From NCBI GenBank assembly GCA_964016885.1, contig OZ024756.1:39742001-39806000 (forward strand): 64,000 bases of DNA, read 5' to 3'. A program made the position numbers and the translations under genes. Source of the DNA: Eledone cirrhosa. Taxonomy: Eukaryota. Positions 3,490 through 47,258 of the stretch are shown here, in pieces. Numbering within the stretch: position 1 is the first letter of the stretch; each line of letters begins with the position of its first letter. The notes below the pieces were generated by a model, which ran no database searches, had not been told where the DNA came from, and saw only the letters and a list, made by a program, of their open reading frames with translations.

Positions 3490-3544
3490 ACTGCTATATA
3501 TATTTCAGTGACAGCCATCTTTGGCTGTGACCTCTTCAGGCAGT
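3490..3544 (-). ncRNA. Type I hammerhead ribozyme motif
   Basis: Minus strand reads ACTGC CTGAAGA GGT-C-ACAGCCA AAGA TGGCTGT-C-ACT GAAA TATATAT A GCAGT. Intact core, 5-bp stem I and palindromic stem III. Confidence 0.8.
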
Positions 3545-3655
3545 TTGAATTAGTATGGTATAGACAAGTACATATGTTGTTTAGGTGTATGATATTGTCA
3601 ATACTCTGATATGCCCAGTTCCTTGCTGGGTTGTTAATTCACTGGGGAACTGGAG

Positions 3656-4280
3656 TCATATGACATATTTCGAGTATATTTTTTTGACCGGCCACCTTCC
3701 TGGTGGCAAGGTTGTAAAAGAAAAGAAATTGTCATCCCTTGAATCGCAAGAATGTTTTGCAAATTTGAAGGTGCCAGCTATCGCAGCCATTTGTAGACTA
3801 TGAATTAGGGAGCTGCGCTCTTTGTCCGCAAATCCAAGTTCAGTCATACTTTGGTCCAAGCGGGTAGCTCTAATAATGATGGGTATGAAGCTAAAGGTGT
3901 ATCTTGGATACTGGATTTGTAAACTCCTCATCAATGGTCCGTAGATGTCCTCCTTCTCCTGTATTTTTCTGACAACGTTTACATCAAATGGGCAGCTGAT
4001 CTCCACAACAGAACACGTTTTCAATGTGTGGTGCCAAACAACAATATCAGGCCCGTTGTGCTTTAATTTGGTGGCAGTTTTTATTTTCAGGTTCCACCAG
4101 TATTCCTTAGTGCCATCTTCCTCGTTTGTTGTTAATTTTGTTTTCCGAAGTGTGTTCCAGATGGTTCTAGCTATCCTATCGTGTCTCATGGGGAGGTAGT
4201 AGCGAGATGACATTCTTTCGCAGCTGGCAACAATGTGGCTTACATCCTCGATCTTTGTTTTACATAGCCTACATTGTTGA
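3656..4280 (-). mobile_element. RLE-type non-LTR retrotransposon 3' fragment (R4/Dong-like)
   Basis: CRLC..E...HIVASC zinc knuckle, RHD motif and PDIVV..VVEISCP..K...K..Y PD-(D/E)xK endonuclease motif. Abuts (TATG)n. Confidence 0.88.
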
Positions 4281-4756
4281 ATGTACGTACGTATGTATGT
4301 ATTTATGTATGTATGTTACCCATGCTAGCGTGGAAGATGGGTGTTAAACGATGATGATGATAATCGTGATGATAATGATGATGATGAGGATGATGAGGAT
4401 GATGATGATGATGATGCTGATGGTGATGATGATGGTGTATGTATGAATATATGTATTTATGTATACCAAACCATTAGTCAATCCATAAGGAAACATTGTT
4501 TCCTTGGTCCGATTTGACCAGTTCATCTCCACTCGGTAAGCGAATGAGGTTCAGTACTTCGATGGAGCATTGTTTTATTGACTACAAAAAAGACAAAACT
4601 GCACTTGGTGAGATTTGACCTCAGGGCGTAGACCCTTATTTAAATACGGCAAGTCATTTTTGCCTGACGATGTAACTGTTCTGCTAACAAAATCTTGACA
4701 TCGACTGGAAGCCTTCACAGAAAAAAGGAGCTAAAAAGCCTGTATATCACTGTCTA

Positions 4757-5082
4757 TGGGCGGCGAATTGATAGAGTCGTTAGAATGTTGGGTAAAATGC
4801 TTTATGGTATTCGTTTCGGCTCTCTGCTCTGAGTTCAAATCCCGCCGAGGTCAACGTTGCCTTTCATCCTATCAAGGTCGATAAAAAAAGGAGCCAGTCT
4901 TGTACTGGGAGTCTATTCTTCCTCAATATCTCTCTCTCACTTTCTATCTTTCTCTGGAAGAAATCTGCTGTAGTCAGGCCTGGGGAGGGATGGGCTTCGT
5001 CAGACTTAAAATGTCCAACAAAACGCCGTATGTCAATATGGGTAATTGCTGGCCTTGTGCCAAAAGTAGAAACAATTATATA
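4757..5082 (+). mobile_element. SINE family 1 copy interrupted by a ~135-bp insertion
   Basis: Head, B-box and core at 4757-4908. Tail resumes at ~5041 (GGTAATTGCTGGCCTTGTGCC). Confidence 0.75.
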
Positions 5083-5084
5083 AT

Positions 5085-6610
5085 ATATATACATATGTAC
5101 ATATATGTATATGTGTGTGTATATATATGTGTATACATATATGCACACTTATATGCATACATGCTCATTTATTTATCCAGATATACACATATATATACAC
5201 AGATATACGCAGATATACACATATATGCACATATATACACATATATACACATACATACACATATATACACATATATACACACATATATACACATACATAC
5301 ACATATATACACATATATACACATACACACACATATATACACATATATACACATATATACACGCACATATACATATATACATATATATACACATACATAC
5401 ACATATATACACATATATGCTCATACATATACAGATATACACATACATATACATATATACACATACATACACATATATACACAGATATACACACACATAT
5501 ATACATACATACACATATATACACATATACACACATACATTTACATATATACATATATATATAAATACACATATATACACAGATATACACAGATATACAA
5601 ATATACACACGACCACCACCACCACCACCACCACCACCACCCCTAACTCGCGCACACATGCAAAAAAAAACAAAATGAATACAATGTAACAGACATTTCT
5701 ATCAATATTACCCTATTACTGGTGGTGTTGTTGTTGTTGTTGTAACTGCTAATGCTGCTGTTGGGATGGATTAACAGTACACTATAGAATAGTTCACGCA
5801 TGATCGAACATCTATAAACAGTCCCGCAGAAATGGAGCGTGAAATGAAACCGTAATTGGCGAAACTTATAATTTGCTTGATTTTTATGCTAGCTTGCTTA
5901 GATTCTTTCTCTAAGCCGTGTAATCTTTAACTGTGTTGATTGTGGATGTATATGTAGTTAACTACGCCTGTATATCTATGTATATGTATATGTGTATGTG
6001 TTCCTATGTATATGTATGTGTGTATGTATATGTATATGTATATGTATATATGTATATATATATGTATATGTATATATATATATATATATATATATATATA
6101 TATATATATATATATATATATATATATATATATGTGTGTGTGTGTGTGTGTGTGTGTATATGTGTTCTTATGTATGCACAGAGACGTACGTACGTTTGTG
6201 TATTTATGGTATATGTTTGTATGTATGTATGTATGTATTTATGTATGTATGTATTTATGTATGTATTTATGCATTTATGTGTATATGTATATGCTTACAT
6301 GCGCATATGTATGCATATATGTTTATATATATATACATATATGCGTATACATATGCATATATATATGCATATGTATATATAAATGTATATATATATGCAT
6401 GTATATATTTTTCCTATATATATATATATATATATATATATATATATATATATATATATATATATATATATATATGAAATAGAATCAGGACCCCGACGGC
6501 TGAGCTCCGGCCGTTTCGACAGCTAGATCCGAATATATATATATTTATTTATATATATATGTATATATATAAATATATACATATATATATAAATATGTAC
6601 ATATATATAT
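5085..6610. repeat. Compound (CA/TA/TATG/CAC)n microsatellite blocks
   Basis: Low-complexity dinucleotide and tetranucleotide runs. Confidence 0.95.
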
Positions 6611-6875
6611 GTATTGGCGCAGGCATGTCTAGATAATTATGGAGTCCACTCTATTACAAGCTATTTTATGCTGTTTCTGCCTGGCCTGTGTATTATTCCG
6701 TTAATATAACAACTGTCCGAGGAATACTCAGCCATTTACATTATAATTCAATAATCAGACTGTCCAGTTGATTTAAAGAATAGAGAAATACTCATCTTAA
6801 AAAATTGTTACACACATTGCATATGTACAGTATGCCCCGCCCCCAATATCCCCCAACCCCCTCCCTCCAGCCCAC

Positions 6876-7208
6876 ACGTAGCTAGAGTGTGTGCCACCTG
6901 GGGCAGCCCTTCAGTTTTTCCGCCCTTGGGCCCTTCACAAAAAATACATATTGCTCAGTGACTCACTCTTAAAGTTATATATATATAAAGTGGAAACGTA
7001 TGTAAAAGACGCAAAAAGCACCCAGCCCACACTGTACATGTGGTTGGCGTTAGGAAGGGCATCCAGCCGTAGAAAACCACCCAGAAACACCTCTATTTAA
7101 GCGAGACACGGTCACCCGACCCGACACAACTTGCCTCAAAATCGGATCCGTCTAGCCCATGCTAGCGTGGAGGATGGACGTTAATTGATGATGATGTTGA
7201 TGATGATA
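6876..7208 (+). mobile_element. Composite MITE end plus SINE family 2 3' half
   Basis: Near-identical inverted copy at 16294-16615. The SINE part ends CCCATGCTAGCGTGGA..GGACGTTAA(TGA)n. Confidence 0.75.
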
Positions 7209-7499
7209 ATTGCAAATGTACGGCCGTGTGCGCAACTGGCGGCTGAACCATCTCACAATTGTCTTGATTTCTCCCTGGGTCTTGTGACTTCAGATGGTCC
7301 ACAATTCCAGCTCTTGAGAGAAGAAATCGTTCATATATTCCTGCTGCTGTTCTAACGATGACTTTTTCTCATTTTTATATACAGTGTTTTAAAGGAACTG
7401 CATATATTTGAAAATTTTAATTAAGTTTGTGTTCTTATGTAATCAGAGATAAGCTTATTTCTAAATATCATACATCACTATTGCAACACGTTTCTCTGT

Positions 7500-45699: not shown

Positions 45700-45761
45700 T
45701 TTTATCTGACGAGGACGTACTGAAAAAACAGCACAGTACCTCCGAAATATATATAATAAAA
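45700..45761 (+). ncRNA. Type I hammerhead ribozyme motif
   Basis: TTTTAT CTGACGA GGA-C-GTACTG AAAAAACAGCA CAGTAC-C-TCC GAAA TATATAT A ATAAAA. Predicted cleavage after 45755. Confidence 0.82.
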
Positions 45762-46281
45762 CATATTTTGATTATGTGAACGTCTTCATTTATTAATATT
45801 TTGAATAATATATATATATATATATATATATATATATATATATATATATATATATATATATATATATATATATATATATATATATCATCATCATTGTTTA
45901 ACGTGTCTTCCACACTAGCAGGAATTGTCCCATTTGAGGCAAGATTGGTAACTGTGTCTCGCTCGTATTGGACTATCTGGCAGGTTTTCTATGGCTGGAT
46001 GTCCTTCCTAACACCAACCACATTACAGTGTGGATATATATATAGTGTAGATATATATATACTGTAGATATAGATACTATGGAGATATAAAAGATACAGA
46101 AGCGAAAACCAATCCAAACCAGACAGTGAGTGTGTTTTATTATTATTTCTGGCAATATTATAACAATTTCATCCTCCCCAAATTTATATATATATATATA
46201 TATATATATATATATATATATATATATATATATTATACAATGATATTAAATAAAAGGAAACTATATTTATAAAACCATATT

Positions 46282-46344
46282 TATTTTATTATACATATTT
46301 CAAGGGTACCAAGACACTTTGGTACACTTTCTTCAGATAAAATA
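46282..46344 (-). ncRNA. Type I hammerhead ribozyme motif (left arm of 46236-46578)
   Basis: Minus strand reads TATTTTAT CTGAAGA AAG T GTACCAA...TTGGTAC C CTT GAAA TATGTAT A ATAAAATA. Confidence 0.72.
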
Positions 46345-46379
46345 CAAAGTTTGTTTCTCTATTTATAAAACAAACTTTG

Positions 46380-46442
46380 TATTTTATCTGATGAAAGCGT
46401 ACCAATGTGTCTTGGTACCCTTGAAATATATATAATAAAATA
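46380..46442 (+). ncRNA. Type I hammerhead ribozyme motif
   Basis: TATTTTAT CTGATGA AAG-C-GTACCAA TGTGTC TTGGTAC-C-CTT GAAA TATATAT A ATAAAATA. Confidence 0.78.
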
Positions 46443-47035
46443 AATATGGTTTTATAAATATAGTTTCCATTTATTTAATATCATTGAATATTTACTCCAA
46501 TTTCTGTTGAGTGCTATAAATCAGTTATAAACACTTATATTTGTCGGACTTCCAACAAATTAAATACCCCTTCTACTTATATATATATATATATATATAC
46601 ACAGACACACATATAAATATCCAACGATATAAATGTACAATAGAGCATATCAAACTTTAGCAAGAGACTGTATATAAGATCTCTATAGAATGTAAGAAGT
46701 TTGTTGAATTTCTTTTTAGTTTATTTTGGGAGACAAGACACATGTTTGAGATTATCTCAAACATGACATCTATAACTTTGACTGTTATATATATGATATT
46801 GTGTATATATATATACTATATACATCACATTCAAAGTTATAGATGTCATATATATATATGTGTGTATGTGTATTGTTAGCTATACAGTTCACACATATAT
46901 ATATATATATATATATATATATATATATATATATATATGCAGAGGTTATATTTAATTTAAAAAATTTTATAACTGATATAAAGCACTTAACAAATTAGTG
47001 GAGTAAATATACAATATATTATAAAACCATATTTA

Positions 47036-47097
47036 TTTTATTATACATATTTCAAGGGCAACCAAAGCAAATTATGGTGCGCTTTCATCAGATAAAA
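47036..47097 (-). ncRNA. Type I hammerhead ribozyme motif (left arm of 46939-47300)
   Basis: Reverse complement of 47195-47256. Confidence 0.72.
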
Positions 47098-47192
47098 AGA
47101 CAACCTTAACGGTTGGAACTTCCTGGAAGCTCCAACCGTTAAGGTTGTCTTTTTTTCCGGGTATGTCAATATTTATTTCTAAAACAAATCTG

Positions 47193-47258
47193 TATTTTAT
47201 CTGATGAAAGCGCACCATAATTTGCCTTGGTTGCCCTTGAAATATGTATAATAAAATA
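47193..47258 (+). ncRNA. Type I hammerhead ribozyme motif
   Basis: TATTTTAT CTGATGA AAG-C-GCACCA...TGGTTGC-C-CTT GAAA TATGTAT A ATAAAATA. Confidence 0.75.

Follow-up and report, generated by a model that had tools for sequence, protein, structure and literature searches.

Hammerhead Motifs in the Eledone cirrhosa Window

The DNA analysed here is a stretch of 64,000 nt from Eledone cirrhosa (assembly GCA_964016885.1, contig OZ024756.1, positions 39,742,001-39,806,000, forward strand), referred to below as the window. It carries seven hammerhead copies, with cores at 3539(-), 45613(-)/45706(+), 46336(-)/46388(+) and 47091(-)/47201(+). A preliminary description of this DNA had counted four motifs. 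All four of its stem II strings are present where it placed them, as are its GAAA-TAT(A/G)TAT-A segment and both of its stem I types (ACTGC/GCAGT and TTTTAT/ATAAAA), but the copies number seven rather than four because three of the loci are tail-out inverted pairs (Table 1). The four sequences, though spelled as described, represent only about three lineages, namely A, B and C/D. The elements at 46.3 kb and 47.1 kb are 85-89% alike, and the 3' flank of the 45.6 kb element can be aligned to both (5 of 8 arm comparisons at no more than 4/300 shuffles); the copy at 3539 alone has no alignable flank (10 of 10 comparisons at 37/300 shuffles at least).

Every copy possesses the type I core (CUGANGA / GAAA / UH) and three helices, with an open stem I. 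The pattern CTGANGA-N20..36-GAAATATRTATA is matched seven times in the window, against a mean and a maximum of zero in 100 dinucleotide shuffles. A fold filter requiring at least 4 bp in stem I and at least 7/9 in stem II was passed by all seven copies and by none of 240 outside matches to the same or a slightly stricter pattern (120 viral, 76 metagenome and 44 prokaryote contigs). The outside scans, in which the C·C mismatch was not required, covered 120 of about 130 viral stretches, 77 metagenome stretches (76 re-matched) and 44 prokaryote ones, all from collections in which animal DNA is scarce. A covariance model built from the seven copies found one further match in the window, a hammerhead lacking the C·C at 58922-58989. 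At E<=10, Rfam assigned neither 3203-3700 nor 46340-46580 to a hammerhead family, and none appears among the matches listed for the whole window (150 of 308); its microRNA matches in the window were dismissed as artefacts of palindromes and microsatellites. The seven motifs are real hammerhead motifs and, as judged from their sequence, putative ribozymes.

Table 1. Hammerheads, host elements and neighbouring features in the window.
Feature	Position	Strand	Remarks
Hammerhead A, lineage A, type I	3490..3544	-	Core from 3539; C·C 3529/3510; helix III (AU)4
Predicted cut of hammerhead A	between 3495 and 3494	-	
Element A, truncated	3442..3666	-	Bears hammerhead A; ends at (TA)n, 54 nt past cut site; 5' side adjoins an unrelated LINE
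LINE neighbour	3667..4276	-	Outside the hammerhead element; non-LTR retrotransposon 3' end, CCHC knuckle, PD..E..K restriction-like endonuclease
Element B, tail-out inverted pair	45413..45811		Arms 45506-45811 (complementarity 89%); flanked by (TA)n runs
Element B, one-sided tail	45413..45505		On minus arm
Hammerhead B, minus copy	45558..45619	-	C·C 45603/45579
Hammerhead B, plus copy	45700..45761	+	C·C 45716/45740
Element C, inverted pair	46234..46577		Arms 46234-46490, 93%; one-sided tail 46491-46577 on plus arm
Hammerhead C, minus copy	46282..46344	-	U·C in place of C·C, 46326/46305; helix III AUAUGUAU
Hammerhead C, plus copy	46380..46442	+	C·C 46398/46419
Element D, inverted pair with inner palindrome	46939..47300		Pair 47004-47289
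Element D, one-sided tail	46939..47003		On minus arm
Hammerhead D, minus copy	47036..47097	-	C·C 47081/47057
Hammerhead D, plus copy	47193..47258	+	C·C 47211/47235
Tail hairpin motif, ACTC ... TTGAGTGCT	46494..46516	+	Counterparts at 45483(-) and 46992(-)
Comparison element, inverted, (TA)n	58894..59125		Hammerhead without C·C, core 58978 (minus), helix III ACCA-C-UGGU
Hydra-like tail motif of comparison element	59065		

Element A lies next to a LINE with a restriction-like endonuclease (RLE), which may be R4/Dong-like. The RLE open reading frame (3656-4276, minus) shares the strand of the hammerhead and lies about 115 nt upstream of it, without an intervening microsatellite, as would be expected if the hammerhead belonged to the 3' UTR of this LINE. 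We regard that arrangement as extremely unlikely and reject it. None of the contigs compared spans 3666, and since none bridges the junction with the hammerhead element, the LINE is treated as a separate neighbour. Depth at 3666 is zero in the X1, X4 and X5 contigs, a gap which alone proves nothing; just 17 raw X21 reads reach this position, and 15 of them carry a different letter. The loose ends at 3667/3681 indicate that the LINE normally ends in a purine-rich tail of its own, which in X4 and X5 is followed by (CATA)n. Another RLE remnant, at 29063-29454, lacks a hammerhead.

Stem Structure and Covariation

The 14 pairs tested are intact in all seven copies (98/98 cells), and both sides change in nine of them, a level reached by none of 500 shuffles; slid control pairings are only 35-53% paired. 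These figures amount to no formal p-value, as the rows share ancestry and also supplied the structure. They support the earlier proposal that the RNA structure is under selection. The 10.1-11.1 pair is A-U in four copies, G-C in two and G-U in one, no copy has an extra nucleotide between 9 and 10.1, and the distal helix of 47201/47091 contains a bulged U. In reads over copy A, position 3507 is the sole variant among those listed across 45 core and stem positions, a change from G-U to G-C at 41-44% of depth. The 122 nt upstream hold at least 16 variant sites, against at least one across the 45 core and stem positions, and the C·C sites may carry low-level variation.

Helix III is short and palindromic, reading AUAUAUAU or AUAUGUAU. 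The preliminary description held that such hammerheads can work as dimers, and folding favours the swapped dimer over two active monomers by 8-9 kcal/mol in four of four tests. The predicted energies support dimer action for these copies. In monomer folding, the stem I pairs of the AU-rich copies have probabilities of only 0.01-0.40. PLE-linked variants with a diminished palindromic stem III (Lünse, Weinberg and Breaker 2017) are likewise reported to cleave as dimers.

The C·C Mismatch in Stem II

The C·C, at positions 10.4/11.4, had been called invariant. It is present in six of the seven copies, while the seventh, 46336(-), carries U·C. Lineages A, B and C/D all retain both Cs, and the neighbouring paired columns vary in seven of eight cases. 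Conservation of the C·C across lineages is suggestive only, there being about three lineages and one copy with U·C.

One way to read this pattern is that the hammerheads share a Penelope-like element (PLE) origin and that the C·C is merely an inherited state, or that any mismatch would suffice, for example by weakening stem II so that it can refold or let the RT pass. The small number of lineages and the U·C copy fit this reading, as does an ordinary A-U pair three positions past the mismatch, which is equally invariant. A single mismatch following 3 bp, U·U or C·A, is seen in 2 of 56 published rows (by eye), and sister (TA)n families have no mismatch. However, all three proximal stem II pairs swap between B and C/D with both Cs unchanged, the Cs are kept although the flanks of A are no longer alignably similar, and the unpaired letters of loop II vary freely. 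Simple inheritance, or a role that any mismatch could fill, is in our judgement somewhat unlikely. The C·C is likely a selected structural feature and not a device for pairing with the target. In canonical hammerheads, loop II meets stem I. The C·C follows 3 bp of stem II, at about the place of that meeting, and it would most likely serve as a hinge, or as a contact for stem I or for the PLE protein.

Probable Penelope-like Identity of the Host Elements

The host elements are probably the 5'-truncated 3' ends of Hydra-type PLEs, with the C·C as a likely selected feature of their structure and not a means of pairing with the target, a reading to which we give a probability of roughly 0.6. All seven arms end at (TA)n runs. 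Inverted pairs are present at three of the four loci, each with a tail of 65-95 nt on one arm only. The 5' junctions differ from copy to copy and the arms are unequal. The short arms measure 50-56 nt from the cut site to the end at four of four C·C loci. A copy that is inverted and 5'-truncated and bears a tail at just one end is a hallmark of PLEs (Craig 2021, PMC8557442), and nearly all Hydra families target (TA)n and carry hammerheads (PMC8557442). Element A has no tail, and its tie to the other copies therefore consists of the motif and the 54-nt spacing only. The 64-kb window contains no PLE open reading frame with telomerase-like RT and GIY-YIG endonuclease and no Hydra protein motifs, the copies being heavily truncated, so the assignment to the Hydra clade rests on non-coding marks. 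The coding marks of that clade are RWK, DKT and a CxCX5C linker in the absence of CCHH.

Among the non-coding marks is the tail hairpin motif, found in all three tails of the C·C elements (in one with a single change). Its strict form, defined post hoc, occurs six times in the window, always in element tails, against a mean of 0.8 and a maximum of 4 in 200 block shuffles. The CTC...GAGYRCT motif is present in two of six new Hydra consensus 3' ends, and loosely in two more (by eye); the remaining two consensus sequences stop before any tail. Likeness of the tail to Hydra ends is a criterion of this analysis, not a published one.

It is unlikely that the hosts are instead a stand-alone non-autonomous family of the retrozyme or MITE kind, or belong to another PLE clade such as Neptune or Naiad. 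Coding sequence is attached to none of the seven copies, Naiads also favour (TA)n and some have hammerhead cores with long spacers, and animal retrozymes have been argued to come from PLEs (10.64898/2026.07.22.740005). Against these origins, the tail motif fits Hydra ends, and the 3' end of Naiad_Obim is unlike that of the C·C elements. The variable 5' junctions, unequal arms and one-sided tail are unlike MITE terminal repeats. Non-LTR retrozymes consist of head-to-tail units of 150-450 nt, each with a hammerhead, whereas the copies in the window are single or inverted and none lies in direct tandem. A possible intron, suggested by GTATGT on the 5' side of hammerheads B and D, was also dropped: the introns so defined would span only 38-50 nt, and the 46-nt deletion in D has no GT-AG bounds.

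Helix III and the (TA)n Target

The preliminary description suggested that helix III mirrors the (TA)n target and might anneal to it. In such a scheme, either the AUAUAUAU helix III or the ...(UA)4 end of the cleaved RNA would pair with the nicked target and prime insertion. The 5' cleavage product would indeed terminate in (UA)4, the complement of the target, and the A/G variant retains a wobble pair against T. However, none of the seven copies ends at helix III or at the cut site; all extend 50-150 nt past the latter, and none runs from there into (TA)n. No TA consensus is seen at 3494/3495 among the read-end piles or loose ends listed. Helix III is non-AU in the (TA)n-targeting Hydra families (26 of 26 published rows) and in families E, F and G of the window, including the (TA)n-flanked hammerhead elements at 58978 and 14191 and the 3203 family. 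In the Anolis PLE, the RT starts at a site non-homologous to the cut DNA, and hammerhead mutants insert normally (PMC11167929). Target annealing by helix III is unsupported and largely refuted, and we hold it to be very improbable.

Comparison with Published Hammerheads

The C·C elements resemble Hydra clade PLEs (PMC8557442) in their (TA)n target, in a type I hammerhead near the 3' end with frequent A17 (12 of 26 Hydra rows, counted by eye), in basal stem II pairs other than G-C, in inverted truncated copies and in a CTC...GAGYRCT-like tail motif. The published Hydra hammerheads (PMC8557442) have a stem II of 3-7 bp without an internal C·C and a non-AU helix III segment of 8-10 nt, whereas stem II of the C·C copies consists of 3 bp, the C·C and 6-7 bp, and their helix III is (AU)4. 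Neither this stem II nor an (AU)4 helix III is present in any of the 26 Hydra rows, and Hydra-1_Obim differs.

Minimal and variant PLE hammerheads, including Drosophila Penelope (Cervera and de la Peña 2014, PMC4209133), share the core, palindromic helix III, long stem II, predicted dimer action and many covarying families per genome. They also occur as dual copies on opposite strands, 100-700 bp apart. In most of these hammerheads 9 and 10.1 are separated by an extra nucleotide, and 10.1-11.1 is G-C. All seven copies in the window lack the extra nucleotide, and only two of them have the G-C pair. An (AU)3 helix III, AUAUAU, is found in 6 of the 56 rows of their Fig. S3 and the C·C in none; an AU-palindromic helix III is already published, in Drosophila Penelope.

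The Anolis Poseidon element PAc (Frangieh 2024, PMC11167929) is alike in its AT-rich target, its weak hammerhead and its two RT starts downstream of the hammerhead, which give an optional tail. Both target strands are cut and extended, the tail lies between the two internal RT starts, and the hammerhead is protein-assisted and dispensable for insertion in vitro. However, PAc belongs to another clade, its hammerhead overlaps the ORF start, and its tail is 30-40 nt long, compared with the longer tail and distinct hairpin motif of the C·C elements.

A stem II of 3 bp followed by C·C is found in 0 of the 82 published rows compared, the largest survey (Lünse 2017) lying outside this comparison. No description of a PLE hammerhead with such a stem II was found in the literature, with Lünse 2017 and Arkhipova 2017 again outside the comparison, and the form looks undescribed so far. 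As a side observation, a paper that brings together hammerhead, C-C mismatch and retrotransposon concerns the R2 HDV-like ribozyme.

The hammerheads of endonuclease-bearing PLEs are slow, depend on protein and are not required for insertion in vitro, and their purpose is debated. A mismatch kept amid swapping neighbour pairs would offer a mutational handle on their function. If the C·C is merely inherited, these copies are one more of many PLE hammerhead families, with catalogue value.

Proposed Mechanism of Insertion

By analogy with the Anolis PLE, the RT/GIY-YIG protein of the element may cut both strands in (TA)n, and cDNA may start at two internal sites. Counted from the ribozyme cut site, the near start would lie 50-56 nt downstream and the far one about 100-150 nt downstream, beyond the tail hairpin. 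Head-to-head joining of two short cDNAs, close to the 5' side of the hammerhead, would then yield tail-out palindromes in which one arm bears a tail. With a helix III as weak as (AU)4, the ribozyme would be able to cut only when dimerised or assisted by protein. Inverted copies are predicted to be inactive, because each ribozyme faces a near-perfect antisense partner.

The tail hairpin and the constant spacing from cut to end point to where a Hydra-type protein binds and starts reverse transcription. A more speculative extension, which we consider decidedly unlikely, is that the hammerhead is mainly a protein-binding ruler and not a cutter. The C·C kink would contact RT/EN and set the first RT start 50-56 nt downstream, acting with the CTC...GAGYRCT tail hairpin, whose conservation would extend from Hydra elements of corals and sea cucumbers to the Eledone cirrhosa genome. 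If true, this would constitute a two-part RNA recognition signal and give a testable explanation of why PLEs keep slow hammerheads.

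Hammerhead Structure and Covariation

All four stem II motifs of the preliminary description occur in the window exactly as written there, and a structural scan of the window returned seven complete hammerheads of type I, all bearing the GAAA-UAU(A/G)UAU-A segment. One lies in element A (3442-3666, minus strand), while the inverted pairs B, C and D, at 45.6, 46.3 and 47.1 kb, bear two each on opposite strands. The hammerhead pattern did not appear in 100 shuffles of the window, and none of 240 pattern matches in viral, metagenome and prokaryote contigs folded as a hammerhead, versus 7/7 window copies. 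In a MAFFT alignment of the seven copies, all 98 stem cells are paired and 9 of 14 pairs are altered on both sides (35-53% paired in slid controls), counts that are inflated, as the rows are related and the structure was read from the same rows. Helix III is invariant at the counted pairs and therefore supplies no covariation evidence. The predicted pair probabilities of stem II flanking the cytosine-cytosine mismatch (C·C) are 0.73-0.99. By folding, a monomer pays about +4.7 kcal/mol to form helix III as a hairpin, and in four of four tests a swapped dimer was favoured by 8-9 kcal/mol over two active monomers, so that dimer or protein-assisted cleavage would fit the models.

Features of the window discussed in the text
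Feature	Position	Strand	Remarks
Hammerhead core A	3539	-	structural scan
Hammerhead cores B	45613 / 45706	- / +	structural scan
Hammerhead cores C	46336 / 46388	- / +	structural scan
Hammerhead cores D	47091 / 47201	- / +	structural scan
Inverted (TA)n element	58894-59125		complete hammerhead on minus arm, helix III ACCA-C-UGGU
Family with a hammerhead-like motif, 3' half only	3203-3417, 6490-6538, 35819-35916, 36988-37185		
Hammerhead-like motif	14127-14199	-	long stem II, helix III ACCUCUAGU
Separate 260-nt palindrome	13808-14067		
Classic minimal hammerhead	40827-40862	+	CUGAUGAA, 4-bp stem II, GAAACGUU
Minimal hammerhead copy, damaged GAAA	38441	+	
Array of short palindromic units	40943-41472		AGTCGATCAACTT and its reverse complement
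Tail hairpin motif CTC ... GAG-Y-R-CT	3361, 37134, 46505 / 35845, 46992, 45483	+ / -	
Looser tail hairpin motif	59065, 36734, 42011	+	
Short-chain dehydrogenase gene exons	16787-22342	+	
tRNA-Phe-like gene	21019-21091	-	inside short-chain dehydrogenase gene
RT fragment	42789-43271	+	presumably Gypsy-like
PHD-finger frame	39100-39660	-	
RLE LINE 3' remnants	3667-4276, 29063-29454	-	51% alike in protein

Conservation of the C·C Mismatch

The mismatch, described as invariant, is C·C in six of the seven copies but U·C in 46336(-). Likewise, the four different sequences are present, but they represent only about three lineages, because elements C and D are 85-89% alike, five of eight arm comparisons align the 3' flank of B with C/D, and the flank of A has no alignable similarity to B, C or D in 10 comparisons. 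Across lineages, one of the eight paired stem II columns beside the mismatch is invariant and both Cs are retained; between B and C/D, each of the three proximal pairs is exchanged. Retention of both Cs while neighbouring pairs vary is suggestive, in a small sample of sequences, of selection on C·C, and the balance of probability favours such selection.

Four public runs (X1, X4, X5 and X21) were mapped to 3442-4280, placing 4,848 X1 contigs and 18,255 X21 reads. Among the 40 of 211 variant rows that were listed, the 45 core and stem positions of copy A hold a single variant (3507, G-U to G-C, 41-44%), the 122 nt upstream hold 16, and the C·C sites hold none. X1 covers the hammerhead bins at two- to threefold the depth of the upstream flank, and X21 read ends pile at 3472 (1129/1492) and 3551 (1478/2250) with diverse loose ends, which is consistent with sister families having only the ribozyme module in common.

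Comparison with Published Hammerheads

The part of Cervera and de la Peña 2014 (PMC4209133) consulted already reports hammerheads with a palindromic helix III and a long stem II, dual copies on opposite strands, and many families that covary. When the comparison with published structures proposed in the preliminary description was made by eye on the extracted text of its Fig. S3, C·C was present in 0/56 rows, AUAUAU helix III in 6/56, and a 1x1 mismatch after 3 bp in 2/56 (U·U and C·A). C·C is also seen in 0/26 Hydra rows in the available part of File S2 of Craig 2021 (PMC8557442), Hydra being a clade of Penelope-like elements (PLEs). No Rfam hammerhead match was obtained on two stretches tested. 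The sections consulted of PMC6765202, PMC3088659, PMC7229834, PMC6466107 and PMC13282606 describe no C·C stem II variant, nor does the literature searched, with Lünse 2017, the largest PLE-variant survey, and Arkhipova 2017 outside the comparison. This is probably an undescribed C·C stem II form of the known PLE hammerhead. What adds most is the conservation of the tail hairpin, together with a constant 50-56 nt between cut site and short-arm end.

Host Elements

The three loci B, C and D are tail-out inverted pairs bounded by (TA)n runs, with arm complementarities of 89%, 93% and 68%. Measured from the predicted cut site, the shorter arm of each pair extends 50-56 nt and the longer 103-150 nt; copy A ends at +54. 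The longer arm carries a hairpin terminating in TTGAGTRCT-like letters. The strict tail motif, defined only after the elements had been seen, occurs six times in the window, always in such element tails (shuffle mean 0.8). It is a candidate protein-binding or RT-start signal.

An inverted truncated copy with a tail on one side is given as a PLE hallmark, and (TA)n targets with hammerheads near the 3' end as features of Hydra, in the consulted part of Craig 2021 (PMC8557442). By eye, two of its six newly curated Hydra consensus ends contain CTC...GAGYRCT, two a looser form, and two stop short of any tail. Since PLE coding sequence was not found in the window (Pfam on 95 of 137 complex frames; eight motif patterns in six frames), Hydra membership is inferred, and the hammerheads likely sit in a Hydra-type lineage. 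Judged by its repeat content, the host genome may be of a cephalopod type.

The tail hairpin motif is common to otherwise unrelated (TA)n-inserted families. Element 58894-59125 also has it, its helix III is close to that of Hydra-1_Obim in the rows consulted, and its plus arm begins within stem II. The family of 3203-3417 has a long stable helix III around palindromic GAGCTC, with the putative stem II hairpin at the fold-back centre of both inverted copies. The element of 14127-14199 starts exactly at the stem I 5' strand beside (TA)n. Units of the array at 40943-41472 lie between (TA)n runs in alternating orientation and may represent iterated microsatellite-primed insertions or telomerase-like additions. 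Element D contains an inner palindrome (47092-47155), and just upstream of stem I its minus arm has lost 46 nt between T-rich microhomologies.

Proposed Mechanism

According to the consulted part of Frangieh 2024 (PMC11167929), two internal RT start sites account for the tail of an Anolis PLE, whose hammerhead requires protein and is dispensable for in vitro insertion. Most likely, the element's own protein would nick both (TA)n strands and prime cDNA from two internal sites; two short cDNAs would then join near the ribozyme 5' side, often at a hairpin. In inverted genomic copies the ribozyme would be masked by its own antisense arm, and C·C would most likely be a putative hinge or contact point. 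If helix III annealed to the (TA)n target, as suggested in the preliminary description, copies would be expected to stop at helix III or at the cut site. Such annealing is unlikely, as 0/7 copies end there and the window also holds (TA)n-inserted families whose helix III is non-AU; helix III is likewise non-AU in all 26 Hydra rows consulted (Craig 2021, PMC8557442). It is rather doubtful that the hammerhead is mainly a protein-binding ruler instead of a cutter, its C·C contacting RT/EN and fixing the first RT start 50-56 nt downstream together with the tail hairpin.

The LINE beside Copy A

Immediately upstream of copy A is a frame with CCHC and PD..E..K motifs, and its long relatives are RT proteins. 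This arrangement suggested that the hammerhead lies in the 3' UTR of a LINE with a restriction-like endonuclease (RLE). That reading was rejected, as no X1, X4 or X5 contig spans 3666 and the loose ends at 3667/3681 show the LINE's own, different tail; the second RLE remnant also has no hammerhead beside it. Both remnants adjoin (CATA)n, and the LINE next to copy A is a high-copy family in the four public runs.
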